36,595 nt of DNA from a virus: the IMG/VR virus record IMGVR_UViG_3300045988_098325. One strand, given 5' to 3'. A model generated the notes under the pieces. The model was not told the origin of the DNA. It saw only the letters and a list, made by a program, of their open reading frames with translations, and did not search any database. A program made the position numbers and the translations under genes. Position 1 is the first letter of the stretch; each line of letters opens with the position of its first letter. This document shows, in pieces, positions 1-36,595 of this stretch.

Positions 1-201
1 GGGTGCGTAAGACCTTACACAGAGTCTTACATGGTCTTACGTTCGGGCACATGCTCTAAACCATTGGAAACATTGGGCTGACAGGCCAAGGCTTACAAAC
101 TTACGTTCCATTATACATATATATGTTTATATATATATATTAGGGATATATATATAGGGGGCGTAAATGTAAGCCTGCCTGTCAGCCAGAAAAGGCAGGA
201 A
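1..201 (+). repeat. Copy A (5'-truncated by the window edge) of the multi-copy ~274-bp intergenic element
   Basis: Base-by-base comparison shows it is identical to 29988..30188 and 36395..36595. It carries GTAAGAC/GTCTTAC heptads (7..13, 24..30, 34..40) and a TA-rich core flanked by GGCTGACAGG/CCTGTCAGCC (76..187). It ends 3 nt before the ATG at 205. Confidence 0.95.
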
Positions 202-11267: not shown

Positions 11268-14200
11268 ATGGCAATCAAACTCGCTGAGGCATACGTGCAG
11301 ATCGTGCCCAGCATGAAGGGCGTGGGCAACGCCATCGTCTCCGCGTTCGACGGTGCCAGCGGCAGAGCCGGCATCTCAGGCGGCAAGGCCGCCGGCAGCG
11401 GGTTCGCCAGTGGCCTGAAAGCCAAAATGGGCGCGGTCATCGGAGCCGCAAGCGCCATCACCAGCAAGGCGATGGACACCATCGGCTCCAGCATCTCCAG
11501 TGCCGTCAGCCGCGCGGACCAGATGAACAACTTCCCCAAGGTCATGAAGAACTTGGGCTATTCGTCCGAGGACGCGGCCAAGAGCATCAAGAAGATCTCC
11601 GACAGTCTCGACGGCCTGCCCACCACGTCGAGCGCGATGACCGGCATGGTCCAGCAGCTCGCCCCACTCACTTCGAATCTCGACGAGGCCACCACCATCT
11701 CATTGGCGTTCAACAACGCGATGCTCGCTGGCGGGGCCTCGACGATGGAGCAGGAGAACGCCCTAGCGCAGTATACGCAGATGCTCTCCGCGGGCACGGT
11801 GGACATGGCTGCATGGCGGAGCATTCAGGCTGCCATGCCCGGCCAGCTCAACCAGGTCGCTGAAGCGATGATGGGAGCCGGCCACAACGCCAACGACCTG
11901 TACGAGGCCATGAAGGACGGCACCTACAGCTTCGATGACTTCAACAAAGCCATCGTCGACCTCAACGAAAACGGGTTCGGCCAATACGCCTCGTTCGCTC
12001 AGCAGGCCAAGGACGCCACACAGGGCATCGGCACCGCCATCGAGAACGTGAAGAACCGCGTCGCCAAGGCCGTGCAGAAGGTCATCGAAGCGTTCGGCGT
12101 GGAGAACATCGCCGGCGCGATCAACGGGTTCAGCTCGCAGTTCGGCAAAATCGGCGACGCTGCCGCCAGCATGGTCACGTTCACCAAGAACCAGTTCTCA
12201 CTATTGTGGGAACGCGTCAAGGACATCGGGGCCATAGACACCCTCAAGACCGCGTGGGACGGCCTCACCGCGAAACTCTCCAACACTGATTGGGGCAACC
12301 TGCTGCCTAGCGGTGTCTGGAAGCAACTGCGCAATACAGCCGCGTCGGCGCTCGCTGACGTCATGGACCGTGTCAGCCAGCTCATTGGCTGGCTTTCCAA
12401 CGGCATCCAATGGGTGACCGGCTTCGTGCAGTCATTTGCATCCACTGGCGTATTCCAAGCGTGGATAGACGTGTTCGGCGTCGTATTGGACGTGATCAAC
12501 AGCGCCACGGACGTGTTTGGATCAGTCATCGACGCGATCGGGCGGTTGACCGGTGCTGCAGGAGGCGCGCAATCGTTCGGGCAGACGGTTGGTGACGCAT
12601 TCAAAATCATCGCTGACCTGATTAAACCGGTATTGCAGGCACTCGATGATGTGCTTGGCTGGTTCAGCCAGAACCCCGGAATCATCGTCGCCGCGCTGGG
12701 TACCATCGGTGCGGCGTTCGCTGGTGTGAAGGGATATCAGGCGCTCAACAACGGTCTGGTGGCGCTCAGGGGAACGATGGACACTGTCACCGGGGCCGCC
12801 AAGGGCATCAGCAACGGCATCCAGCTCATGATGGATCTGGGCGGTCCGGTGCAAATGGTGAAGAAGCTCGGTTCGAATCTGAACATCGTCTCCACAGCAC
12901 AGCAGACATGGAGCTCCGTGACCAAGGCCGCGACGGCGGTCCAGGGCGCGTTCAACGCCGTCGTCTCGGCCAATCCCATCGGCGCTATCATAACCGCAAT
13001 CGCCGCAGTGGTCGCGGCCCTTGTCTGGTTCTTCACTCAGACAGAGACCGGCCGCAAGGCATGGGCAGCGTTCACACAGTTCCTCACGGACGCGTGGAAC
13101 AAGGTCTGCGAGGTCGGCAAGGCCGTATGGAACGGGCTCGCATCGTTCTTCTCCGGATTGTGGGAGGGTATCAGTTCCGTCGCGCAATCCGTGTGGGGTG
13201 GCATCTCGAGTTTCTTCACCGGTATCTGGGATGGTATGAAATCAGCGTGGGATGCGGTGTGGAATGGGGTCCAAACGGTGTTCGAGGCCGTCTGGGGTTT
13301 CATCCAAGCGTATGTGCAGAACGTCATCATGCCGATCGCGGAGTTCATCAAAAACACGTTCATCGTGGTCGCGGCCGTGTTCGTGACCATCTGGAACGGT
13401 ATCAAGACCGTGTGGGAGACCGTGTGGAATGCGATCGTCGCGTTCTTCACGCCCATCATTCAGGGTATTTCTGACACGATCACGACCGTGTGCACGTTCA
13501 TCTCGGAGACGTGGAACACGGTATGGTCGGCGGTCAGCGAATTTTTCCAGACCGTCTGGCAGGGAATCGTCGCGTTCTTCACGCCGATCATCGATGGCAT
13601 CGCCAACACAATCAGCACGGTCGTCAACGCAATCAAATCCACGTGGGATTCCGTGTGGGGTGCGATATCGAGTTTCTTCCGGAACATCTGGAACGGCATC
13701 GTCGCATTCCTCACGCCGATCATCAACGGGATACGCACCACGATTACGAACGCGGTCAATGCGATACGGTCCACGTGGACGAATGTATGGAGCAGCATCA
13801 GCAGTTTCTTCTCGGGAATCTGGAATGGTATGCGGAACACGGTCGGCAGTGCGGTCGGATTCATCGGCGACAGGGTACGAGGCATCAAAAACACCGTGTT
13901 CGGAGCGCTCAGTGGTGCCGGCGAATGGTTGCGCGGCATCGGCAGGGACCTCATCCAAGGCCTGATCAATGGTATCGGCGACATGTTCGGATGGGTGCGT
14001 GACAAAATCTGCTCGCTCGGTGTCAATATTCTCGGCTGGGCGAAGAGCGTGCTCGGCATCGGCAGCCCGTCGAAGATTTTCGCACAGTATGGCCGGTGGT
14101 TGGATGAGGGTCTCGCCATCGGTATCGATGACGCTGCTGCTCGGGTCGGCAAGGCGATGGACGATATGACCGGCATGGTTGTCGGCAAGGGCCTCGATTT

Positions 14201-15293: not shown

Positions 15294-18200
15294 ATGAGCG
15301 ACCTGCATGTACGGTTCAAGGCATATGACAGTGCCGGGGTGTTCCAAGGGTTCCTGACCCCGAGCTCGTGGTCGGCGAGCGTGCAGCACAATGATGCGGG
15401 CACCCTGTCGATGACCTACCCGCGTGTCGCACTCAATGGTGGTATCCTCCAGCGCGGGTTGGAGCAGGGCCTCGAGATCGGCATGGAGGTCGCCACACAT
15501 GACGCATGGGTGGAACCATACAACTGCCGTTTCCTGCTCGTCTCGCGCTCCCGTGACGCCAAGGACAGCACGGATACGGTCACGCTCAACTGCATGACGT
15601 GGATCTGGTTGACGAAAAAGATCCTCAACCTGAACATGAGTGCGTTGCTTACCGATACCGACAACAAGGGCAAACGCCCATTCTATTCGGCGACATCTGG
15701 CATGATCGTGCGCACGCTGCTCGACGAGAACCGTAAGCGGGGCGGTGCGGCCACCGTCATGCCGGCAGGGTTCAACAGTGCACGCGACACGAACGGTGAC
15801 ACGTGGGCGTACAAGATGACGCTCTACTATGATGCCGGGGTCGACCTGTACACGGTCATCGACAACCTGAGCGCGAACGGCATGTGCGATTGGCGTACCG
15901 ACGGGCGCATGCTCAAAATGTGGAACGCCGATTCGACCGCATTGTGCCGGGATCTGAGCGCCCGTGTGCGCATCCCGTTGGCGACCGGATTGCTGGAATC
16001 CCCAGAGGAGGAGACCATCGAGGGACTCGCCGGCAACATCCTCGTCCGTGGTGACAACGATCTGGTGTTCACGCAGGAGAACAAGACAGCTCCCTCGCCA
16101 TGGGGCAAGTGGGAGCTGTACTCGTCGCAGGGTGGCGTGTCGAACAAGGACACCGCCCAATTGTTGATGCAGACGCAGCTCGCGTCCGCCGCCCGTGTGC
16201 GCGGCCAGTACACGCGCCAGATCCTCACCACGGGCATCGAGCACCTGCCGTTGGTCGACTACCGTCCGGGTGATTGGATCACCGCACCAACCGTCAACCA
16301 TGGCGAAAAAGTGCGGGTGCAGCGCGTCGAACTGTCAAACCGCAATGATGGCGGCGTCAAATGTGCGCTCATGCTCAACGACAGGTTGTATGATGCGCAG
16401 ACCCGACAGGCCAAACGCATCCAGGGCATCACCGGCGGAGCAGTCGCCGGCGGCGCGTCCGGAGCCACACCCGCCCCCGAAAAAGACCATCGCATACCAA
16501 TGGCACCGGCCGGGCTCGTGGTGCAGACCGACGCGTACATCGACGCGAACGGGTACGCGCGCGGCCTCGCCACCGCGCAATGGGCTGAGGTCACGCAGGC
16601 CACCAACCACACCAGCATCGAGATCACCTCATACCGGGTCGAATGGAGGCCAAACATCGCCGGTGAGGCATGGCGCAGCGCTGGCGTGACGACCGACACG
16701 ACGTTGAGCTGGGGCAATCTCGACTGCGGCACCACGATCCAAGTGCGCGTGCGCGCGGTCCCCACCTACAGCGATAAGCTGGGCGACTGGTCGGCGGTGG
16801 CCGTCGTCGATGTCGCACAGGATGTGACGCCGCCGAGCGTCCCGTCCACGCCGGTGCTCGCCAGCGAACTCGGCGTCGTCACCATCCACTGGGACGGGCG
16901 CACCGCCACCGGCACACACATGGAACCGGATTTCGATCATATCGAGGTAGGACGCGGCACCAACCCCAGCAACCTCACCCGTATCGCCGCAGCACAGTCC
17001 GGGGAGGGGGACTATCTCGACACGGCACTCACCGCCGGCGACGAACCCGTCTACGCACTGCGCGCAGTCGACCATGCCGGCAACATGAGCGCCTGGTCGA
17101 CGACTGCTGGAATCACCGTAGCCAGCACTGTCAGCCCCGAGGAGATCAGCCAGATCAAAAATGACCTCAAGGCCAACAACGATGCGCTGGAGACGGCGAA
17201 CCAGACGCTCTCCCAGGCGAAGAAGGATATCCAGGCCAACAGCCAGGTGATAACCAGCGTGAATCAGACGCTCACGCAAACCAATAAAACACTCGAGGAA
17301 ACCAACCAGACGCTCTCCCAGGCGAACAAGGACCTGGCGCAGGCCAAAAATGACATCAAAGCCAACGCCGACAAAGCAAAGGAATCCTACGACAAAGCCA
17401 CCAACGCACAAACCACCGCAGATGGCAAGAACAAGATCATCAAAAGCACGCGCGAACCGGCACACGCCGGACTCGCGACAGGTGACATGTGGTACCAGAC
17501 CAGCCTCGTCACATGGTGGACCGGCCAGCCCAACAACTCACCAAGCGTGCTCTCCGAACGGGTCGATCATGTATACATCTGGGATGGAACACAATTCAAT
17601 GAATACAATTTCGTCGCCAGCAACGTGATCTCCACGAACACAGTGACCGCACCACTGCTCGCCGCTGGCAGCATAATCACCGACAAACTCGCCGCGAACG
17701 CGGTTACCGCCGACAAGATCCTCACAGGAGCCGTCACCACGGACAAACTTGCCGCAAACGCGGTTGTATCGGATAAGATCGCCGCGAACGCGGTCACTGC
17801 AGGAAAAGTCGCCGCAGAAGCCATCTCATCACGAGAGATCAAGGCACTCGCCATCAGTACGGACAAACTCGCCGCGAATGCGGTGACCACCGCGAAGATC
17901 GCGGCGCTCGCCATCACGGCCGACAAGATCGCCGCGAACGCCGTGAACGCCGACAAGATCGCCGCGAATGCGGTGACTGCAGACAAGATCGCGGCGCTCG
18001 CCATCACGGCCGACAAGATCGCCGCGAACGCGATCACCACGGACAAGATCAAGGCCGGCCAGTTCGTCGGCTATGTGTTCACCGGCGCGGTCTACCAATC
18101 CCACACGGAGGACAACAAGGGCTTCAAACTACGAGGCAACTCATTCGACATGTGGGATGCCAGCCAAAACAACACCGTCCACCTCGACGGCAGCGGAGCT

Positions 18201-21429: not shown

Positions 21430-22326
21430 ATGGTCGCCATCAAAAGAGAGATAGTCAACCCAGGGCACGGCCACCTCGCGCCATTCCTGCTCGCCGTGCA
21501 TTCCACGGCGAATCCGGGGGCGACCGCGCGCAATCATCGTGACCTATGGTCACGTGGCTACGACTACGCGGTGCATCTGACCTCCGACTGGACGGAGGCG
21601 ATCCAATGCGTCGAATACGACCGGTTGTGCTGGCAGGTCGGCAACGGCAACTCGACGTGTATCGGCATCGAGATATGCGAGGCCACCAACGCCGCGGATT
21701 TCCAGCGTGGCTTCGAGATCGCGGCGCAGGTGTGCGCGCAGGTGCTCATACAGCGAGGCTGGAATACGAGTGTGATGCACCCGCACCTGTGGTTCTCACA
21801 GACCTACGGCGGCTCAGATCATGTGGACCCATTCCCGTATTTCGCCCGGTTCGGGCGCACATGGGATGACTTCGTGCGACTTACACAGCAATACATCAAT
21901 GGAGGAGGAATCATGGCAATCTCGGATAGTGACGCGCGGAAAATCGCGAAATTCGTATGGGAGTATGGCGTGCACGGCGTGCAGGCCAGCGACCGGTTGA
22001 GGGGCATCGACACGGCCGCGAACAACGTCAACGGCATGTTGACGAAAAACAACGAGTGGAAGTGGCTCACCAACCGCGTCTACCGTCTCGCCGACATGTT
22101 CTTCAACCGCACCGACGCCGCCGGCAGCGGCATGGTGGACGACAACGGCAAGGAAGTCAAACGCAACCTCTACGACCGCATCGTATGGTGCGACAAACGC
22201 CTGCGCGAACTCAACCCGTACAAGACCGGTGAACCCAGGAGCCTGCCGGTGGGTGTCGCGCTCACCAACGAACAGATGGACAAGCTCGCGGCCATCGTCG
22301 TGGCCAAACTCAAGGAGGCAGAATGA
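21430..22326 (+). CDS. Endolysin, N-acetylmuramoyl-L-alanine amidase (Amidase_2/PGRP type)
   Basis: Motifs AVHSTANPGATA..., CWQVGNGNSTCIGIEICE and GGSDHVDP. Confidence 0.85.
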   Translation: MVAIKREIVNPGHGHLAPFLLAVHSTANPGATARNHRDLWSRGYDYAVHLTSDWTEAIQCVEYDRLCWQVGNGNSTCIGIEICEATNAADFQRGFEIAAQVCAQVLIQRGWNTSVMHPHLWFSQTYGGSDHVDPFPYFARFGRTWDDFVRLTQQYINGGGIMAISDSDARKIAKFVWEYGVHGVQASDRLRGIDTAANNVNGMLTKNNEWKWLTNRVYRLADMFFNRTDAAGSGMVDDNGKEVKRNLYDRIVWCDKRLRELNPYKTGEPRSLPVGVALTNEQMDKLAAIVVAKLKEAE

Positions 22327-22652
22327 GCGACAATCTCGATAATCTCAACGACCATCCGGCCTACGACGACAGTGACCAGGCGTTGCCCGACAGCATGCCC
22401 ACCCACGAGCCCGCGCCGAACCCGACTCGCGTATGGGTGCGGGCCGCGCTCATACGCGCGCTGAAAACCATGGCACAGGCGGCCATCGGCGTGCTCGGAA
22501 CCGGCGCAGTAGGACTCATGCAAGCCGACTGGGCAAACGTGCTCTCCGTCGCCCTCATGGGCGGCGTATTGAGCCTGCTCACCAGCATCGCCGGAATCCC
22601 CGAGGTGGACGATGGGTCAAGCCTCGCGAGCATCACAGACAGCGCAAACTAG
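22323..22652 (+). CDS. Holin (r1t/LL-H-like)
   Basis: 109 aa, with hydrophobic segments AAIGVLGTGAVGLM and LSVALMGGVLSLLTSIAG. It overlaps the endolysin stop. Confidence 0.7.
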   Translation: MSDNLDNLNDHPAYDDSDQALPDSMPTHEPAPNPTRVWVRAALIRALKTMAQAAIGVLGTGAVGLMQADWANVLSVALMGGVLSLLTSIAGIPEVDDGSSLASITDSAN

Positions 22653-22694: not shown

Positions 22695-22950
22695 CTGCCT
22701 TTGCTGGCTGACAGGCAGGCTTACATTTACGCCCCCTATATATATATCCCTAATATATATATATAAACATATATATGTATAATGGAACGTAAGTTTGTAA
22801 GCCTTGGCCTGTCAGCCCAATGTTTCCAATGGTTTAGAGCATGTGCCCGAACGTAAGACTATGTAAGACCTGTGTGGGGTGTGTAAGACCTTACACAGAG
22901 TCTTACATGGTCGTACGTGATTGACGTAAGACCTAGAATTCGTGTTCGCC
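22695..22950 (-). repeat. Copy B, the inverted copy of the multi-copy element, with its 30-bp core flipped relative to its flanks
   Basis: The reverse complement matches copies C and D apart from a few substitutions. The exception is 22870..22899, which has the same plus-strand orientation as in C and D. Confidence 0.95.
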
Positions 22951-22963
22951 GCAGCTGCAATGA

Positions 22964-23015
22964 GCCCCGCCCCACTCGCCAACCATGGTGAGCGGAGCGG
23001 GGCGATTTTTGCGTT
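22964..23015 (+). terminator. Rho-independent terminator of the late/lysis operon
   Basis: A 17-bp imperfect stem (22964..22980 pairing with 22987..23003, 2 mismatches), followed by GATTTTTGCGTTT. Confidence 0.7.
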
Positions 23016-23850: not shown

Positions 23851-24570
23851 TCAGTCGTTGAGATGATCGATGGCGTACTGCGCTTCGGATTCAGTGAACT
23901 GGCCACCGTATTCGCTCATCAGCTGGTCCTTGACCGCGGCCTCGCTCATCTCCATCGTGTCCCGGTACGTCTTCGCCTGTTCCAGGGCGTTCTTGTTGTA
24001 ATCGGCCTTCAGGTGATCGATGGCGTACTGTGCGGCCTCCGCAGGGAACTGGCCGCCGTATTCGCTGGTCAGCTGGTCGTAGATGCCCTGCTTGCTCAGG
24101 TGCATCATATCGGAATACGTTTCCGCCTGACTGAGCGCATTGCGATACTCGGCCGGAACGTTGTTGTCTGTGGATTCAGGCTTTTGCTCGGTGGCGTTCT
24201 GCTCGGCCTCCGTGGTCTTCTCATCCGCGGCCTCCTGTTTCTCCTCCTCGGCCTTCTGCTCTTCAGCCTGGTTCTTCTCCGCGGTGCCCGCGGACTGCGA
24301 CGTCGACGACGACGGCTTGGCTTCCGTCACCGACTCCTTCTTGTCATTGGATCCGCCGGCGCTCGCCGCGATGGCGATGACGACAACGACGATGATCACC
24401 CAGAACCACCACTTTTTCCAGATCGGCTTCTTCCCGTCGCCCTTCGGCGGGGTGGCGGGCGTCGGCTGAGGCATCGGCGGCTGCATTTGCTGCTGCACCG
24501 GAGCCCCAGCAGGCTGGAACTGCTGCGCGGCATTTCCCTGCGACGATGGCATGGTATTCGGATCACTCAT
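23851..24570 (-). CDS. Membrane-anchored protein with two Ltp-like repeats (putative superinfection exclusion)
   Basis: The ATG at 24570 follows GAAGAGGAA. The TM segment is WWFWVIIVVVVIAIAASAGG. The duplicated motif is NAL.QA.TY.D.M..S......QL.SEYGGQF...EAQYAIDHL. Confidence 0.7.
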   Translation of the reverse strand: MSDPNTMPSSQGNAAQQFQPAGAPVQQQMQPPMPQPTPATPPKGDGKKPIWKKWWFWVIIVVVVIAIAASAGGSNDKKESVTEAKPSSSTSQSAGTAEKNQAEEQKAEEEKQEAADEKTTEAEQNATEQKPESTDNNVPAEYRNALSQAETYSDMMHLSKQGIYDQLTSEYGGQFPAEAAQYAIDHLKADYNKNALEQAKTYRDTMEMSEAAVKDQLMSEYGGQFTESEAQYAIDHLND

Positions 24571-24683: not shown

Positions 24684-25074
24684 TTACGGCAGATCCTCGT
24701 ATTCGGTCTGCTCACGCTCGATATCACCCTTCTTCGCGGCAATGTCGAATTGATCCATGTGCGACGCGACATACGCAGCCTGCTCATCCGCAGACCACCC
24801 AGAAATGGACTGCGCCATATCGCTGTCGATAAAATGGCCGGCAGCGTCGACGTTGACCTGTGTCTGCCGCATCGCGTTGACGAGTGCGAACACGTCGTTG
24901 CAGCACAGGATTGGGGCGAGTCTGTCGAGCTCGTCGATGGTCCACGGCTTCAGCCCCCTTGATATGTAGTGAGGCGTAGGACTGGGCGCGCCCGATGATC
25001 CTGCCGGCCTCTTCCTGTGCCACACTCTTCGCCTCGGGCGCTTGTCGCACGGAGGGCCGGTTGCTTTGTCGCAT
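24684..25074 (-). pseudogene. XRE/ImmR-like repressor with its reading frame broken at a homopolymer (plus-strand C5 at 24954..24958)
   Basis: ORF 24784..25074 encodes the first HTH helices (SVAQEEAGRIIGRAQSYASLHIKG). ORF 24684..25025 encodes the continuation (LKPWTIDELDRLAPIL...). Removing one G would fuse them into a single protein of about 129 aa. Confidence 0.7.
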
Positions 25075-26537: not shown

Positions 26538-26752
26538 CCGACACCACCACCGACCTCGACGTACTCATCAAACTGTTTGACACCAACCTGCGGATCCTCA
26601 AGGGAATCGACATCGACTCCGACAGGTACATGGCCGGGCGCATCGAGGAACTCGAATCAACCATCCGCACACTCGAATCACTGCGCAACATCGCATCCAT
26701 GTCAAACCGGATCGACGACGAGCTGGAGAGGCACCCATGCAAGGCGGAATGA
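26534..26752 (+). CDS. Hypothetical protein
   Basis: The ATG at 26534 lies inside ORF 26393..26752 and gives 72 aa. Confidence 0.5.
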   Translation: MTDTTTDLDVLIKLFDTNLRILKGIDIDSDRYMAGRIEELESTIRTLESLRNIASMSNRIDDELERHPCKAE

Positions 26753-27045
26753 TCGGACTGTGGACGCCACTGCCAGACACGCACCTCGACCAGGCTCGAG
26801 GACTGCACACGCACCAAACACATCAGGAGACACTCGTGAAACACACCATCATCCGCCACACGTGGACACTGTGCGGGATCCTCTCGCTCATGCTGTTCGG
26901 CATCGACATGGCCGTCCTATACGAGCACGGCGGCAGCATCAGCCCATGGCTCACGATCCTGCTCCTCATCGCAGGGCCGATCCTCCTCTGCGCCGGCACC
27001 ACCATGCTCGGCAAAGGGGAACGCGACACAGAGGAGACACTGTGA
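26737..27045 (+). CDS. Hypothetical membrane protein
   Basis: 102 aa with hydrophobic segments WTLCGILSLMLFGIDMAVL and WLTILLLIAGPILLCAG. Confidence 0.55.
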   Translation: MQGGMIGLWTPLPDTHLDQARGLHTHQTHQETLVKHTIIRHTWTLCGILSLMLFGIDMAVLYEHGGSISPWLTILLLIAGPILLCAGTTMLGKGERDTEETL

Positions 27046-27056
27046 GGGAGCCGATC

Positions 27057-27494
27057 ATGCTCACCATCGACGGCACCCCAATCGCCAAGGGCCGGCCCAG
27101 AGTCTACCGAGGACACGGGGTCACCCCCGAGCGGACCCGCCAGGCCGAACAGGCAATCCGCGACACGTTCAACAGGGAATACCCCGGTTTCCAACCATTC
27201 GAGGGGCGACTCGTCATGACATGCCGATTCTGGATGCCCCGCAACGGCCGCCCGGATTTGGACAATCTCGTCAAACTCGTCACCGACGCGCTCAACGGCC
27301 TCGCCTACAGGGACGACGAGCAAATCGACACAGTCGCCGCCTACCGGCACCTCCCAGACCGTAAGGTACGCGGATGCAACGGGCGCATGCGATGGCGACA
27401 CACAGGCGACCCACTCACCCACCACGGGGAGGAATACACGCCACACACCGCAATCCGCATAGAGGAAATCACCACAGAAAGGAACCCACAATGA
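27057..27494 (+). CDS. rusA: RusA-family Holliday junction resolvase
   Basis: Motifs KGRPRV and PDLDNLVKLVTDALNGLAYRDDEQI. The alternative GTG start at 27042 is possible. Confidence 0.8.
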   Translation: MLTIDGTPIAKGRPRVYRGHGVTPERTRQAEQAIRDTFNREYPGFQPFEGRLVMTCRFWMPRNGRPDLDNLVKLVTDALNGLAYRDDEQIDTVAAYRHLPDRKVRGCNGRMRWRHTGDPLTHHGEEYTPHTAIRIEEITTERNPQ

Positions 27495-28070: not shown

Positions 28071-28246
28071 CGTACAGCGGATACACGCCAGGCCGCCCAG
28101 GACACCTCGACATGAGCGAGCCGCACGAATACTGCGCCGTCTGCGGCACCGGACTCTCCAACCAGGACGTCCACGACGGACGCGACACCTGCCAATGGTG
28201 CCGCCTCGACCCACCAAAGGAGCAGGACGATGAGCAATCCCAATGA
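28067..28246 (+). CDS. Hypothetical small zinc-ribbon protein (59 aa)
   Basis: Found by manual reading. The motif is CAVCG...CQWC, with an ATGA overlap upstream. Confidence 0.45.
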   Translation: MTYSGYTPGRPGHLDMSEPHEYCAVCGTGLSNQDVHDGRDTCQWCRLDPPKEQDDEQSQ

Positions 28247-29213
28247 CGTACTCGCCGTGCTCAACGCGCAACAGGCAGCGCACACGCCACACATTCCCGA
28301 CACCATGCCAATGGCTGGCGAATGGATGCCGACAACCCCAGCGCCCAGCGTATGGCCGACGATCCGCGAACACATCGTGGACATGGTCACCCACCAGCCG
28401 CGCAGCCTACAGCGCGAAATCGGCCCAAGCGAACTCGGCACACAATGTTTGCACTGCCTCGCCAGAAAACTCACCGGGCACACGACAGAGGAGATTCGCG
28501 ACGTCGCATGGCTGCCATTCATCGGCACCAGCGTCCACGCGCAATTCGAACACATGTTCGGCGCATTGGACGGGTATGAGACCGAGAAAACCGTGCTCGT
28601 CGGCAACCTCACCGACGCGCGCCCCATCACCGGCAGCATCGACCTGTGGGACGAAAAAAACGCGGCGACCTGCGATTGGAAAATCGTCGGAAACAGCACC
28701 CTGGCCGATGTGCGCCGCCACGGCCCCAGCCAACAATACAAAATCCAGGCGTCGCTCTACGGCATCGGCATGAGCCACACCACACCCGTACAAACATCCT
28801 GCATCTACTACCTGCCACGCAACCAGCCCAGCCTGGACGCCGGATGGATCTACGAAACCCCATTCGACCCACGCCCCGGCCAATGGGCACTCGCCAGGGC
28901 ACGCCTCATCCTCACCCTATACGACAGCATCCGCGTCGAATACGGGGACAGCATCGCGGAACAGTGGGTGAACGCGTTCCCCCGCAACACCGAACACTGC
29001 TTCCACTGCCGGGACGAAGCGCAACGCAGAAACCACGCCGACCTCGCCAGCCTGATCGGCACCAAAACCGTGGACGCGGCGGACACGCGGACATTGGCCG
29101 ACAACCTGCCAGCCATGCCACGCGCACTCCTCAACGTCCCACAGGCCGACTACCGGCCACAACCAACCAATAAACCAACCACTGACACAAACCCGAAAGG
29201 ACAACAGTCATGA
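28230..29213 (+). CDS. PD-(D/E)XK nuclease, Cas4/RecB-like exonuclease
   Basis: Motifs IDLWD...CDWK (D...D-x-K) and QQYKIQASLY (QxxxY), with Cys pairs CLHC and CFHC. Confidence 0.75.
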   Translation: MSNPNDVLAVLNAQQAAHTPHIPDTMPMAGEWMPTTPAPSVWPTIREHIVDMVTHQPRSLQREIGPSELGTQCLHCLARKLTGHTTEEIRDVAWLPFIGTSVHAQFEHMFGALDGYETEKTVLVGNLTDARPITGSIDLWDEKNAATCDWKIVGNSTLADVRRHGPSQQYKIQASLYGIGMSHTTPVQTSCIYYLPRNQPSLDAGWIYETPFDPRPGQWALARARLILTLYDSIRVEYGDSIAEQWVNAFPRNTEHCFHCRDEAQRRNHADLASLIGTKTVDAADTRTLADNLPAMPRALLNVPQADYRPQPTNKPTTDTNPKGQQS

Positions 29214-29947
29214 CATGGAACAACCAGTACACACCACAATTCCAGCAGCCACAATACGGGCAGCAGCCACAGCAAGGCTACGCGCCACAGGAGGAGCCAA
29301 CCGCTCCGGCACCCAGCTTCGGCCAGCTCCTCAAAAGCGGAGGCGGCAAAGCCGCGTTCAACAAGGACAGCATGCCCGGCACCACCGTGACCGGCACCGT
29401 CGTGGACATCAAAACCCGGCAGAAAAAAGAGTACGGGACCGGCAAACCCATGTTCTCACAAAAGGGCAATCCGAAATACGAGGCGCTCATCACCGTGCAA
29501 ACCAGCCTGCAGGAGGCGCCCGACGATGACGGACGCCGCACCATCTACATCAACATGTGGGGCGTGCAGCAGGACGCCATCCGCAAAGCCTGCGAAGCAG
29601 CCAAATGCGAAGGCCCCGTGGAGGGTGACACGTTCACCGCGACCTACGTGGGCTTGGGGCAGGCGCAGCCCGGCATGAGCGCGCCGAAACTCTACGAGTA
29701 CCGCATCGACCACAAGCCGCCCGTGTCGTTCACACAGTCCGAAAACGCTCCGCAGCCCACGCCCCGGCAGTCTGCCGGACAGCCGGCACCGCATGTGGAC
29801 GCCATGCAGGTCACCGGCCTGCGCAACATGGGCAAGAGCGATCAGGAGATCTCGCAACTGCTCGGCGTCCCGTCGGACGCGGTCACCCGCATCGCCGGGC
29901 AGGCACGAGTGCAGGGCAGCGAGATGAACGGCGAACCCGAATTCTAG
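29210..29947 (+). CDS. Putative ssDNA-binding-like protein (Q/P-rich N-terminus, OB-like core, HTH-like segment, C-terminal ...NGEPEF)
   Basis: 245 aa. The C-terminal acidic-aromatic tip recalls SSB/gp2.5 tails. The functional call is tentative. The last ~33 nt belong to repeat copy C. Confidence 0.4.
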   Translation: MTWNNQYTPQFQQPQYGQQPQQGYAPQEEPTAPAPSFGQLLKSGGGKAAFNKDSMPGTTVTGTVVDIKTRQKKEYGTGKPMFSQKGNPKYEALITVQTSLQEAPDDDGRRTIYINMWGVQQDAIRKACEAAKCEGPVEGDTFTATYVGLGQAQPGMSAPKLYEYRIDHKPPVSFTQSENAPQPTPRQSAGQPAPHVDAMQVTGLRNMGKSDQEISQLLGVPSDAVTRIAGQARVQGSEMNGEPEF

Positions 29948-30188
29948 GTCTTACGTCAATCACGTACGACCATGTAAGACCTGTGTGGGGTGCGTAAGAC
30001 CTTACACAGAGTCTTACATGGTCTTACGTTCGGGCACATGCTCTAAACCATTGGAAACATTGGGCTGACAGGCCAAGGCTTACAAACTTACGTTCCATTA
30101 TACATATATATGTTTATATATATATATTAGGGATATATATATAGGGGGCGTAAATGTAAGCCTGCCTGTCAGCCAGAAAAGGCAGGAA
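29915..30188 (+). repeat. Copy C, a full-length copy of the multi-copy element
   Basis: 274 bp, with 3 mismatches to copy D. It starts inside the 3' end of 29210..29947 and ends 3 nt before the ATG at 30192. Confidence 0.95.
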
Positions 30189-30191
30189 ACG

Positions 30192-32537
30192 ATGAACTTC
30201 TCCAACTACCACCCCATACCAGTGCAGGGGGTGCCCGCCGCATACGAAGGGATATTCAACCAGCTTGAGCTCACCTTCCAACCGGCGAACGACTCCACAG
30301 TCGTGAACACGCTCCTTGGCCGCCCACTCGCACTGGTCACTGCCCGCCACAGCAAGAACGGGCCGGAGGCACCCGTCATCGCCATCGGATACCAGAAAGC
30401 CATCTGGGAGCTGCGCGAGGGGCATCTGCGCTGGTGCCAGCCGGAACAGCGCCTCTACCGCAGGGACGAGGACGCTGAGGACCATCCGGGGGACCGGTAC
30501 CTGCTCAACAGCTGGCATCCGGTGAAAAGCATCGACGACGAGTACGGCGTCGAATCAAAGAACCAGCAGTCACCCGCATACGTTGCGACGATCCTGCGTG
30601 AGGCGAAACGACTCGAATGGTTCGCGCAGGTCGAACGTGGCATCCGCATCGACCCGTGCGTGTGGGTGCGTCGCGACGGGCACGTCGTCAAGCTCGTCGG
30701 CGAGGAAACGGAGGATCTCGCCGTCACTCAGACGTTCGACCCTGCCGGCATGGGCCGTGAGGCCATCCGTGACGCGGAACGCATCTGCCGGTGGCTGACC
30801 GTGGACGAGAAATCCTACCGGAATCTCGTGCGCATGTTCGCCACTCCCTGGCTGGAACCGTTCAAACAGCTCACCTACGTGCTGTCCGGGCATGGCGGCG
30901 ACGGCAAGTCGCTGGTCATGTCGCAGTGTGTGCTCGGCGTGCTGGGGGTCGGCAAGGTGTTTCCCGCGTTCAACGCGCAGAATTTCTGCGAGACCGGCTC
31001 GTACACCATCAACCGGGAGAGCATGCTGGATGCGATGGACGGCATGGCGTTCGCCTATGACGACGAGGCGGGTGACGTGACGGAGCACATGCTCCCCTCG
31101 TTGCGCGCCATATCCACCGGCACTCAGATGCAGGCGCGTGTCATCGGCGGCAAGTATCGGACGGTCACGCCTTCCGCGACGGTCGTCCTGTGCACGAATC
31201 AGGGGTTCGCCGACAGTACGGAGTCCTCCGACCGGCGCAGGTTCGTGAAGGTCGAGTTCCATGCGAGCACCGGCCGAAGCTATGACGAGTATCACGCGAT
31301 CGAACTGTTCGTGCACAACCATCCTGCTGCATTGTTCGCGCTCTCGTGCGAACTGTGGGAGCAGGGTGATGTGCCGGATCTGGTGAATCTGTCGCCTGCC
31401 CGTCAGATCAGTGACGAGATGTATTGGCTGATCCATGAGATCTGTGTGAACGATGAGCAGTACGGTCAGCCGGTTGCGTCGCGTACCGCGTACCGTGATG
31501 AGTTCCATCGTGCGGTCAGTGATGATGCCATGCAGTTGATGGGGTTGAAGAACTCCACGAGCTGTGTACTTCGTGGCGGTCAGCAGCGTGTGGTGCGTGT
31601 CGCTGATTGGGATCGGTTCGACAAGTATCGGAACGCGGTTATGGAGGCGGACGCTGAGGGCGTGGTGGAGGTGCCATCCCCGCCTTCCCCGATCGACGGG
31701 CCTATTGTCCTGCCGTCCGAGGTTGGGTTCGCCGCGGAGTATGTGCGTGCCGACCAGCGCAAGGTCGCCCGTGATTGGAAGCAGTTGGCTCAGTCGCCGA
31801 ATGTGGATACGAGCCGGCGTCCGACGGATAGTGCCGCGTATGCGGTCGTACCGCATGAAGGGTTTGTGGTCGTGGACATGGACGTGCCGCATGACGGCGG
31901 GGACACGGGGTGGACGGTGTGGAACCGGCAGGTCGGCCTGTATGGGACGCCCGCGTTCCCCACCACGTATCTGGTGGGCACGCCGTCGGGTGGCGTGCAC
32001 GCGTATTACCGTGTGCCGGCGGCAGTCGCCGGACAGCTCAAGAACGCCGCGCACCCGAAGGGCATGCCGGTCGACCTGCGTGTGGACGGCAAGGGCTACG
32101 TGATCGGCGCCGGCTCCCATGTGACCGCCGGCGACTACCGGCTGCTCGACATGCCTGCCGGTGACGTGGTGCCTGAACTGTCGGAGCGCATGTGCCGGTG
32201 GCTGATCGATACACCCGGCTATGTGGAGTCGCATACGCCGATGCTCCCCACCGTGTCCGATGACGGTGCGCCGCGCACGTCCATTGCCAGTCTGATCGCC
32301 ACCACTCCGGGAGCGGGGGATTCGAGCAGGCCGCCGGTGGATATGAGTCCGATACCGGAGGGTTCACGCAACACCGACCTGCACGCATGGGCATACGGGC
32401 GAGCAGCGAACCACCCAGACAATTGGCCGTCCATCAGACTCGACCTGTTCGAACGCGGACGGATCAGCGGCCTGCCCGAATCGGAGTGCGCGACGATCTG
32501 GAACAGCATCATGCGTGAGCTTGGAGGTGCACGATGA
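30192..32537 (+). CDS. Replication protein: D5/P4-type P-loop helicase domain followed by a Prim-Pol (archaeo-eukaryotic primase) domain and PriCT-1
   Basis: Walker A is SGHGGDGKS and Walker B-like is AFAYDDEAGD. Prim-Pol motifs are VVVDMDV, PSGGVHAYY and DLRVDGKGYVIGAGS. PriCT-like is SRNTDLHAWAYG... Confidence 0.8.
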   Translation: MNFSNYHPIPVQGVPAAYEGIFNQLELTFQPANDSTVVNTLLGRPLALVTARHSKNGPEAPVIAIGYQKAIWELREGHLRWCQPEQRLYRRDEDAEDHPGDRYLLNSWHPVKSIDDEYGVESKNQQSPAYVATILREAKRLEWFAQVERGIRIDPCVWVRRDGHVVKLVGEETEDLAVTQTFDPAGMGREAIRDAERICRWLTVDEKSYRNLVRMFATPWLEPFKQLTYVLSGHGGDGKSLVMSQCVLGVLGVGKVFPAFNAQNFCETGSYTINRESMLDAMDGMAFAYDDEAGDVTEHMLPSLRAISTGTQMQARVIGGKYRTVTPSATVVLCTNQGFADSTESSDRRRFVKVEFHASTGRSYDEYHAIELFVHNHPAALFALSCELWEQGDVPDLVNLSPARQISDEMYWLIHEICVNDEQYGQPVASRTAYRDEFHRAVSDDAMQLMGLKNSTSCVLRGGQQRVVRVADWDRFDKYRNAVMEADAEGVVEVPSPPSPIDGPIVLPSEVGFAAEYVRADQRKVARDWKQLAQSPNVDTSRRPTDSAAYAVVPHEGFVVVDMDVPHDGGDTGWTVWNRQVGLYGTPAFPTTYLVGTPSGGVHAYYRVPAAVAGQLKNAAHPKGMPVDLRVDGKGYVIGAGSHVTAGDYRLLDMPAGDVVPELSERMCRWLIDTPGYVESHTPMLPTVSDDGAPRTSIASLIATTPGAGDSSRPPVDMSPIPEGSRNTDLHAWAYGRAANHPDNWPSIRLDLFERGRISGLPESECATIWNSIMRELGGAR

Positions 32538-34747: not shown

Positions 34748-35854
34748 ATGAAATACGTCAGCATGTTCTCTGGCATCGAAGCGGCAACCGTCGCATGGAA
34801 ACAACTCGACTGGCAACCGGTCGCATTCTCGGAAATCGAACCATTCCCATGCGCAGTGCTCAAACACCATTACCCAACCGTCCCCAACCTGGGAGACATG
34901 ACGAAAGTAGATTGGAATGACTACCATCACACAGCCGACATTGTGGTCGGAGGAAGCCCCTGCCAAAGCTTCAGCACCGAAGGACTCAGGAAGGCGTTGG
35001 ACGATCCACGCGGCCAGCTCATGCCAGCATATTTCCGAGCTTGCCAGCAAATTGACCCAGAATGGATCGTCTGGGAAAACGTGCCCGGAGTATTATCCGC
35101 AGATCACGGACGCGCTTTCGGCACACTCCTGCAAATCGTGGCCGAACTCTGGCCTGATGGGGGGGCAGCATGGAGAGTGCTCGACGCTCAATTCCACGGA
35201 GTGGCACAACGCCGCCGCCGTGTGTTCGTTGTCATCAACACTAGAGACTGGCGACGTGCCGCACCGGTACTATTTGAGCGAGAAAGCCTGTGCTGGGATC
35301 ATCCGACGAGCAAAGCAAAAAGGCAAGCCCTTACCGGAAGTGTTGTCGGCGGCGTTGCAGGCGCAGATACAGGCATGGGAGCAGGAAACTGCCTAAACCA
35401 TTTTGACGGTCAGTTGAGCAGGCGCTACTCGGCAGATGGGCCATACCCGACGTTTGCTGGTGGGACGGGAGCAACCGGCGGCAGGAACATAGGCGTGCTC
35501 ACTGATGTGGTACAACTGGTTCGCACCTCGAACACGAATTCCAATGGAGGGCATTTCCCTCAATCGGATGTAATGGACACGTTAGATACGACGGTTTCAA
35601 CTGCGGTGCTGTGCAATGCCGGTGATTCAGCGAACGCCGAAGTCGGCTACGAAGTGCGACGGCTCACCCCACGGGAATGCGAACGGCTCCAGGGCTTCCC
35701 GGACGATTACACGAATGTCGCATTCAACGGGAAACCAGCCTCGGACGCGAACCGTTACCGCGCACTCGGCAACAGCATGGCAGTCCCCGTCATGCGATGG
35801 ATAGGCGAAGGCATCAACCTCGTGGAACAAGCGAAACAGGAAGGAACACTATGA
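34748..35854 (+). CDS. DNA (cytosine-5)-methyltransferase, with no adjacent restriction endonuclease
   Basis: Motifs FSGIE (I), GSPCQSFS (IV), ENV (VI), QRRRRVF (VIII), RRLTPRECERLQGFPDDYT (IX) and GNSMAVPV (X). Confidence 0.9.
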   Translation: MKYVSMFSGIEAATVAWKQLDWQPVAFSEIEPFPCAVLKHHYPTVPNLGDMTKVDWNDYHHTADIVVGGSPCQSFSTEGLRKALDDPRGQLMPAYFRACQQIDPEWIVWENVPGVLSADHGRAFGTLLQIVAELWPDGGAAWRVLDAQFHGVAQRRRRVFVVINTRDWRRAAPVLFERESLCWDHPTSKAKRQALTGSVVGGVAGADTGMGAGNCLNHFDGQLSRRYSADGPYPTFAGGTGATGGRNIGVLTDVVQLVRTSNTNSNGGHFPQSDVMDTLDTTVSTAVLCNAGDSANAEVGYEVRRLTPRECERLQGFPDDYTNVAFNGKPASDANRYRALGNSMAVPVMRWIGEGINLVEQAKQEGTL

Positions 35855-36036
35855 CCGACACGATCAGCGCATACAGGCGCAGCATGATATTGAAATGGCA
35901 TGCGGACGGCTACCGGGTGGACGAGATCGCCCGCCTCATCGATCTCCCGCAACAGGCCGTCATCGACATCATCGACAACGCTGCCCGGCCTGAGGAGCAC
36001 AAGCCGGACATGGGAGAGGACGTGCCATTATGGTGA
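35851..36036 (+). CDS. Small HTH protein (sigma-70 region 4 / LuxR-like)
   Basis: 61 aa: MILKWHADGYRVDEIARLIDLPQQAVIDII. Confidence 0.55.
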   Translation: MTDTISAYRRSMILKWHADGYRVDEIARLIDLPQQAVIDIIDNAARPEEHKPDMGEDVPLW

Positions 36037-36308
36037 ACCACTTTGACTGGCAGAAGCAGGCCGCCTGCGCGAACCCGGACTACGATCCGGAATGGTGGTT
36101 CGCACCCAAGGACTCGCCCGAGGCCACGGCGGCTCAAGCCATCTGCATGTACGACTGTCCCGTATACGAGCAATGCGAACAATACACGCGCGCCGTCGAC
36201 CTGCGGACACCAGGCGGAATCACCGGCATCTGGGCAGGCTGCACCTACCGGGAGCAATGGCGTTCCGCCGGGAAGCAGGAATCAAAACATCAACACGACA
36301 AGGATTGA
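36030..36308 (+). CDS. whiB: WhiB-family transcription factor
   Basis: Four Cys (C13, C40, C43, C49) and a GIWAG turn. Confidence 0.85.
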   Translation: MVNHFDWQKQAACANPDYDPEWWFAPKDSPEATAAQAICMYDCPVYEQCEQYTRAVDLRTPGGITGIWAGCTYREQWRSAGKQESKHQHDKD

Positions 36309-36321
36309 ACAAGTTTTGAAA

Positions 36322-36595
36322 GGCAGCGAGATGAACGGCGAACACGAATTCTAGGTCTTACGTCAATCACGTACGACCATGTAAGACATGTGTTGGGTGC
36401 GTAAGACCTTACACAGAGTCTTACATGGTCTTACGTTCGGGCACATGCTCTAAACCATTGGAAACATTGGGCTGACAGGCCAAGGCTTACAAACTTACGT
36501 TCCATTATACATATATATGTTTATATATATATATTAGGGATATATATATAGGGGGCGTAAATGTAAGCCTGCCTGTCAGCCAGAAAAGGCAGGAA
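36322..36595 (+). repeat. Copy D, a full-length copy of the multi-copy element. Its last 201 nt are identical to window positions 1..201.
   Basis: 274 bp. It begins with a non-coding fossil of the SSB-like gene's 3' end (36322..36354) and runs to the window end. Confidence 0.95.

Follow-up and report, generated by a model that had tools for sequence, protein, structure and literature searches.

Copy B of an intergenic cassette of ~270 bp, present three times per genome (copies B, C and D) in an uncultured phage, contains a 30-bp spacer that is inverted relative to its own flanks. The inversion is probably a fixed and heritable one, of the kind known for the spacers of inverted repeats, brought about by template switching or short-patch conversion, and not the work of a programmed switch. 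The window, by which the whole analysed stretch of DNA is meant, comprises 36,595 nt of the IMG/VR virus record IMGVR_UViG_3300045988_098325.

Architecture of the three cassette copies

The cassette copies, their parts and the neighbouring elements were located in the window as follows.

22695-22951, minus strand: copy B, with flanks inverted relative to C and D (inverted repeats I1-I5); neighbours are the holin gene (22323-22652) on one side and a terminator-like hairpin on the other
22851-22918, no strand assigned: core of copy B, a 68-bp quasi-palindrome with 19-bp arms (one mismatch) and a 30-bp spacer; direct-repeat family D7
22861-22869, plus strand: left perfect 9-bp arm of copy B, ATGTAAGAC; an inversion breakpoint lies within or beside it
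22870-22899, plus strand: asymmetric 30-bp spacer of copy B, flipped relative to the B flanks
22900-22908, plus strand: right perfect 9-bp arm of copy B, GTCTTACAT
22963-23010, plus strand: terminator-like hairpin followed by T5, separating copy B from the next gene (23040); RNA fold −36.5 kcal/mol, z −6.1
29929-30197, plus strand: copy C, with the primase-helicase gene (30192-32537) directly downstream
29962-30029, plus strand: core of copy C, 68 bp, with the spacer at 29981-30010
30063-30174, plus strand: second quasi-palindrome of copy C, located in the R flank, AT-rich at its centre and bounded by GGCTGACAGGCC.AGGCTTACA / TGTAAGCCTGCCTGTCAGCC; fold −57.9 kcal/mol, z −8.6
30099-30128, plus strand: promoter-like site TATACA-18-TATATT (9/12 match, weak), facing the downstream gene
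36336-36595, running on into 1-201, plus strand: copy D, with whiB (36030-36308) upstream and a 231-aa gene (205-900) downstream
36369-36436, plus strand: core of copy D, 68 bp, with the spacer at 36388-36417 carrying two private SNPs

Copies C and D are direct repeats with 98–99% identity, and the flanks of copy B are 99% reverse-complementary to both. The termini of the window share an exact direct overlap of 201 nt (1-201 = 36395-36595) starting within the copy D spacer; this exact overlap marks the contig as circularly closed or permuted, with a genome length of about 36,394 bp. Positions 1-201, which the sequence-only reading had counted as a separate copy A, are the same as copy D, so that three copies remain.

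At copy C the L flank, with which the cassette begins, consists of the final ~35 nt of the 245-aa gene upstream (ending in EPEF and the stop codon), and this gene ending is kept in relatives whose primase is ~70% identical. The 68-bp core with its GTAAGAC heptads is the second part. A 50-nt block that is invariant across lineages and a 112-nt AT-centred quasi-palindrome make up the third, the palindrome being edged by ~20-bp inverted repeats with heptad-like GGCTTACA/TGTAAGCC that have equivalents in B and D. The last part consists of a leader hairpin and a ribosome-binding site, abutting the start codon of the primase gene at C and that of the 231-aa gene at D. Since the L flank of copy C is the 3′ end of the 245-aa gene, with an ending conserved in relatives, C is probably the source copy; the same origin of the L flank from a neighbouring gene suggests that B and D are segmental duplications. 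A MITE or other mobile insertion was rejected: inspection of the element ends by eye gave neither a terminal inverted repeat nor a target-site duplication, and every related genome seen has the element at these same three sites.

DNA hairpins of about −22 to −25 kcal/mol (z about −8) were calculated for the cores, with −22 kcal/mol for the B core on the plus strand (z −7.7), −18.3 kcal/mol for the B core on the minus strand and −24.6 kcal/mol for the C core (z −8.1). A search of Rfam gave no match to the element, and an RNA element is unlikely, as B is inverted and both orientations occur. The terminator-like hairpin at 22963-23010 was not flagged by a simple terminator scan. The promoter-like site faces the primase gene at C and the 231-aa gene at D, its number of matches not exceeding that in shuffled sequence. 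Because the copy B cassette is inverted, the mirror site there (22781-22752, minus strand) is directed antisense into the holin and endolysin genes. An antisense transcript opposing the lysis cassette might start there, with no conserved ORF downstream.

Orientation of the copy B spacer

The arrangement ATGTAAGAC-N30-GTCTTACAT occurs exactly three times in the window, each time on the plus strand (22861-22908, 29972-30019 and 36379-36426), with none expected by chance. The three enclosed 30-bp spacers repeat one another in direct orientation with 0–2 mismatches, that of D differing at 36388 and 36394, and the 68-mer of B is 94% identical to that of C in direct orientation (family D7). Outside the spacer, copy B (22695-22951) was compared with the reverse complement of copy C (29929-30185), and mismatches were found only at 22703, 22860 and 22943. 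Inside 22870-22899 the same comparison gave mismatches at 25 of the 30 positions, and the direct comparison with C gave 29 matches. The claim from which the analysis started, namely that the flanks of B are reverse-complemented while its spacer still reads on the plus strand, was thereby borne out. A hybrid model composed of reverse-complemented C flanks and a direct C spacer differs from B only at 22860 and 22882, in both cases with T in place of C. With a derived spacer that is the reverse complement (29/30) between flanks of 99% identity, the structure matches an inverted-repeat spacer inversion.

Some details of the sequence-only reading needed adjustment. The spacer is flipped with breakpoints inside the arms, as had been described, but it is not identical to that of C: the T at 22882 is private among the window copies, being found in neither C nor D. 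The T at 22860 is either private or the junction base of the S′ type defined below. The inverted repeats of 9 bp are indeed perfect, but the full arms extend to 19 bp with one mismatch, within the 68-bp quasi-palindrome 22851-22918. It had further been argued that reciprocal recombination between whole copies cannot flip the core alone, which holds for in-register exchange. The conclusion drawn from this, that a local event is required, is true only in the sense that such an event took place somewhere in the history of the element, since relatives carry both orientations at all three sites.

Orientation in related phages

A conserved 24-mer of the R flank was used to retrieve two IMG/VR contigs and ten metagenome stretches, and more contigs were obtained from lookups with window proteins (contigs are given with L numbers). 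All copies were oriented by their flanks, and the spacer was scored as S when oriented as in window C and D and as S′ when oriented as in window B; each contig being a consensus assembly, the score gives the majority form only. At the B site, S′ was found in the window, L001, L008 and L010, and S in L002 and L005. The C site carries S in the window and L005 and S′ in L004 and L007. For the D site, S was scored in the window, L006, L015, L016, L017 and L021 and S′ in L009, with L003 as S′ or a variant. The comparison with related phages that had been proposed as a check thus showed that orientation varies, with both forms present at all three sites.

Within genomes the copies mostly agree. ULZD01042602 has S′ in three of three copies, the SKEA/SKEO lineage has S throughout, and a mixture within one genome was seen only in the window lineage (S′ in B, S in C and D). 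SNP haplotypes of the R flank group by genome and not by site. Concerted evolution of the copies is indicated by both patterns, since orientations are uniform within the other genomes and the haplotypes cluster by genome.

At the B site the nearest relative is L005, which combines both flank haplotypes of window B (L and R) with a spacer in the S orientation; with the same flanks and the opposite spacer, only the core has changed. In the wider group, spacer orientation is uncoupled from flank haplotype: GAA-type and TTT-type flanks each occur with S and with S′, the window-type flank is found with both, and so is the other flank type (L002 against L001, L008 and L011). A spacer SNP (GGGG/GTGG) is present in both orientation classes. 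This uncoupling, together with a SNP that crosses the classes, implies more than one flip or core exchange in the group, and the four-gamete pattern could reflect frequent, switch-like flipping instead of rare events plus recombination. In the sister clade L032/L034 the element has the same spacer orientation in both relevant contigs. Selection for a fixed absolute (plus-strand) orientation was considered and rejected, the ULZD, SKEA and L001 lineages being mixed in absolute terms.

Two contigs showed further rearrangements at the cassette. In L012 (ULXP01025584.1, 1300-4160) the whole 68-bp core of B is deleted between GGTCTTAC direct repeats, so that the core is dispensable at B there. The deleted core is followed by an IS607-like element (TnpA with MerR-HTH and Resolvase domains, TnpB of the OrfB_IS605 type), beyond which lies a second copy of the junction between the holin downstream region and the terminator, without the repeat. 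This IS607-type serine transposase was found in L012 alone among the relatives and is unrelated to the window. In L010 (SKDY01009618.1, 1076-2218) the order reverse-complemented terminator, L flank of B, core and R flank is joined directly to the start of the structural module (231-aa gene). The junction fits an inversion of the 22.5-kb segment between D/A and B via the inverted cassettes; alternatively, it is an assembly chimera through the 175-nt R repeat.

Gene content and probable host

The genome is that of an integrase-less siphovirus of ~36.4 kb. Scans against Pfam and PHROGs assigned structural genes (large terminase, SPP1-type portal, capsid, tail tube, tape measure) and lysis genes (amidase endolysin, r1t-type holin); further genes encode a Bro-N/Ant protein, a helicase plus Prim-Pol protein, a dCTP deaminase, a C5 methylase and WhiB. 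Genes with a role in recombination are those for an exonuclease (28230-29213) and RusA (26577-27494), and a phrog_1911 protein (29210-29947) is encoded beside the exonuclease. No integrase, invertase, resolvase or serine/tyrosine recombinase was detected with Pfam and PHROGs among 59 ORFs, including all major ones.

Among cultured phages, the closest are those of Bifidobacterium: the large terminase shares 54% identity with its PMBT6 counterpart, and the primase matches Bifidobacterium phages only. WhiB and a GC content of ~60% are consistent with an actinobacterial host, and the phage probably infects gut Bifidobacterium. Cultured phage genomes gave no DNA match to the repeat or to 25 kb of the window. 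The R-flank 24-mer was absent from 185,579 species genomes, and no prophage copy was detected there.

Several features away from the cassette were recorded. Two genes lie on the minus strand (23851-24570 and 24684-25025) in an otherwise plus-strand genome; they encode an Ltp-type superinfection-exclusion lipoprotein with two Ltp repeats and a 113-aa protein with no assigned function. The Bro-N/Ant gene adjoins this pair, and these are features of temperate phages, yet an integrase was not detected. Periodic repeats of 30 nt (10 aa) occur in the gene of the 1268-aa tail protein (window 17166-18065), and three repeats of 132 nt in the tape-measure gene (window 13410-13778). The window lineage has a C5 cytosine methylase gene (34748-35854) that is absent or truncated in close SKEA/SKEO contigs, as seen when L014/L017 were compared with L015/L016 in the region upstream of whiB.

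Origin of the inversion

Template switching at the quasi-palindrome, which the sequence-only reading had named as one of two possible local events, fits the data well and belongs to a documented class of mutation, in which the spacers of inverted repeats are inverted and their arms homogenised (PMC8604942, PMC5453318, PMC8794818). In the proposed sequence of events the cassette would have arisen upstream of the primase-helicase gene and been copied to two other module boundaries, once in inverted orientation (B). Its core, with the 19-bp inverted repeat and the asymmetric 30-bp spacer, would fold into a hairpin when single-stranded. In the course of replication or repair the nascent strand would then jump to the complementary arm, copy the spacer off the opposite strand and jump back, and such a double template switch would leave the spacer reversed in place. 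Short-patch gene conversion, with the nearly palindromic 19-bp arms serving as homology, could give the same product; the donor might be one of the other two copies, C or D, paired in direct register, or else a relative that co-infects and has the other allele. In-register gene conversion among the three copies would afterwards spread or erase the alleles, resulting in concerted evolution, probably assisted by the phage exonuclease and RusA; the phrog_1911 protein is guessed to be the annealing partner of the exonuclease. In the window lineage homogenisation would have remained incomplete, leaving B opposite to C and D. Both the template-switch or short-patch route and the direction of the event are inferred.

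The element has close counterparts among known template-switch inversions (the Ripley model; the 'short template switch' of Loytynoja & Goldman), which likewise involve short imperfect repeats, a reverse-complemented spacer and breakpoints in the arms. Such events are known as apparent clusters of substitutions between close relatives, the appearance also found here. In contrast to these cases, the window element is multi-copy, its alleles are redistributed among the copies by gene conversion, and a second route is conceivable, namely conversion from a direct-register paralogue via the palindromic arms. Concerted evolution as in rRNA operons and phage module-boundary sequences shows the same identity of 98–99% within genomes, difference between genomes and location at boundaries; unlike typical repeats of that kind, one cassette copy is inverted and the palindromic core can pair in either register.

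The main alternative is that B never flipped in the window lineage. S and S′ would then be old alleles, with B ancestral and C and D converted, or else an S′ patch of ~50 bp would have been imported into B. This account is the less likely of the two. In its favour, window B has T at spacer position 13, as do the S′ alleles of ULZD and L010; its A in the right-hand 'TAG' junction is common to all S′ alleles and is shared also with some S-type D copies (L006, L015 and L016); the absolute orientation of the window at B recurs in three of five lineages. The phage group is, moreover, mosaic and encodes recombination genes. Against this account, B shares GGGG/CCCC with its own C copy and not with the S′ alleles of ULZD or L001, and the variable sites are mostly CpG transitions, which are prone to recurrence. 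The B flanks also carry the window's own haplotype up to the arms, so that an import would need two crossovers within about 60 bp. Counted in substitutions, window B is two changes away from a flipped spacer of its own C copy and also two from the S′ allele of ULZD; a flip of the own spacer and an imported S′ patch fit equally well, as each needs two extra changes (22860, 22882). Since the absolute orientation of B is common to ULZD and the L001 lineage, C and D, rather than B, may be the copies that flipped.

A far less probable explanation is a programmed switch; the sequence-only reading had named site-specific inversion beside template switching. Here a site-specific recombinase or a hairpin-processing enzyme, working at the 9-bp repeats, would invert the 30-bp core as needed, and an array of proteins at an origin or promoter would thereby have its polarity reversed. 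It draws on the presence of both orientations at each of the three sites in relatives, uncoupled from flank haplotype, on arms that are perfect 9-bp inverted repeats, and on the central heptad, which is moved and reversed by the flip. The scan of 59 ORFs, however, detected no serine or tyrosine recombinase, and orientation is identical in all readable contigs of the window strain. Lineage-specific SNPs have accumulated within each orientation, the copies agree within other genomes as expected under inheritance and conversion, and the B site of L012 lacks the entire core. The spacer is also far below the synapsis length of invertases, a 30-bp segment being too short to loop into a synapse for site-specific inversion. 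The Hin/Gin/Cin serine invertases, FimB/FimE and the Rin shufflon of Bifidobacterium prophages such as PMBT6 resemble the core in that inverted repeats bound a segment with two orientations, but their segments measure hundreds to thousands of bp; in PMBT6 an integrase is annotated inside the tail-fibre region, whereas no recombinase gene was detected in the window phage. Very unlikely as well is a recombinase-independent variant, in which the core would be a polarity element of a multi-copy origin or enhancer that flips recurrently through a hairpin or cruciform at a rate sufficient for mixed populations. If it were true, each cassette could set the direction of helicase loading or transcription independently, and inverted cassette pairs might also allow isomers by inversion of whole segments, as hinted by the L010 junction. 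Very unlikely, too, is an assembly artefact, whether by wrong threading of the spacer across a collapsed repeat or by chimerism between two co-occurring strains. The contigs do stem from short-read metagenomes, the name of one indicates a low coverage of about 5×, and those of relatives often end at these repeats. But the B-specific flank (CAGCTGC) lies 52 shared nt from the spacer, a distance at which both are bridged by ordinary reads and by k-mers of k = 55. The SNPs of B at 22860 and 22882 are missing from C and D, and these private SNPs show that assembly did not simply fill in the B core from C or D. In ERZ1690223 NODE_217 and ERZ28656797 scaffold_972, the two independent scaffolds from other assemblies that make up the same-strain comparison, the cores of B, C and D are identical to those of the window, and the junction type L-to-S′ recurs in several unrelated samples. 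Logan contigs stop at the repeat, exactly where k-mers cease to be copy-specific, and are uninformative on orientation. A fixed inversion by template switching or short-patch conversion thus remains the preferred reading.

Heptads and possible function of the cassette

The heptad GTAAGAC occurs 21 times in the window, 18 of these sites lying in the cassettes, and 1.5 sites would be expected by chance in the whole window. The sites are placed at spacings of 10, 17 and 20 bp, in both orientations, beside an AT-rich palindrome. Their order is − + + − − in C and + + + − + in B as read on the plus strand, which corresponds to − + − − − in the frame of the B flanks. The flip had been said to turn three left-facing and two right-facing heptads into two and three; this is wrong, as relative to the flanks only the central heptad changes, from two right and three left to one right and four left. 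The flipped 30-bp segment holds this one heptad only, with no gene or promoter inside. The further suggestion that the flip could reverse the polarity of whatever assembles there found no support, given both orientations at every site and a B copy without the whole core in L012.

Upstream of the primase gene, distant relatives (primase ~70% identical) share the cassette architecture but have a different motif: CTTAC-type heptads in L032 and L034, GGTAACG 7-mers in L033. Because the motif changes between relatives while the architecture stays, the heptads are inferred to be putative sites for a phage-specific DNA-binding protein, that is, origin iterons or operator/upstream activating sites. 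The primase itself is unsupported as the heptad binder, as no part of its sequence covaries with the 7-mer motif when the window, L034 (CTTAC type) and L033 (GGTAACG type) are compared.

With clustered 7-mers, an AT-rich palindrome and a copy (C) next to the primase gene, the cassette has the sequence characteristics of an origin and is a candidate replication origin, or else a region of master promoters or transcription control. Phage P4 ori/crr is bound by the alpha primase-helicase, and iteron/palindromic origins of this type resemble the cassette in having short repeats beside an AT-rich palindrome, upstream of a primase-helicase gene. Herpes simplex oriS/oriL are AT-centred palindromes with inverted initiator boxes on either side, present in multiple copies, and the cassette is like them both in its AT-centred palindrome and in its several copies per genome. 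In contrast to iteron origins, this putative origin contains a promoter-like site, a leader and a ribosome-binding site as well, and it may instead control transcription. Taken together, the 68-bp core and the 112-nt palindrome of the R flank resemble palindromic replication origins. In the cultured lytic Bifidobacterium phage BP742P1 (L025, 3518-3999), tandem repeats of 174 nt and 55 nt with GTTAA(C/T)AGATG-like motifs sit in a 1.5-kb non-coding region upstream of the primase homologue, which may be an analogous origin or control region.

Conclusions

The kind of mutation described is already known; new is this instance, located in an uncharacterised, triplicated control cassette. The combination of heptads and an AT-palindrome in a triplicated cassette was previously undescribed, and it is found in uncultured, integrase-less phages, probably of gut Bifidobacterium. 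If the flip were dynamic, it would constitute a polarity switch that needs no recombinase; the present evidence points to an ordinary fixed mutation. As such, copy B offers a clean natural case of in-place spacer inversion at a quasi-palindrome, with the unflipped state kept in paralogous copies and in close relatives, and it shows how spacer inversion interplays with the concerted evolution of dispersed phage repeats.
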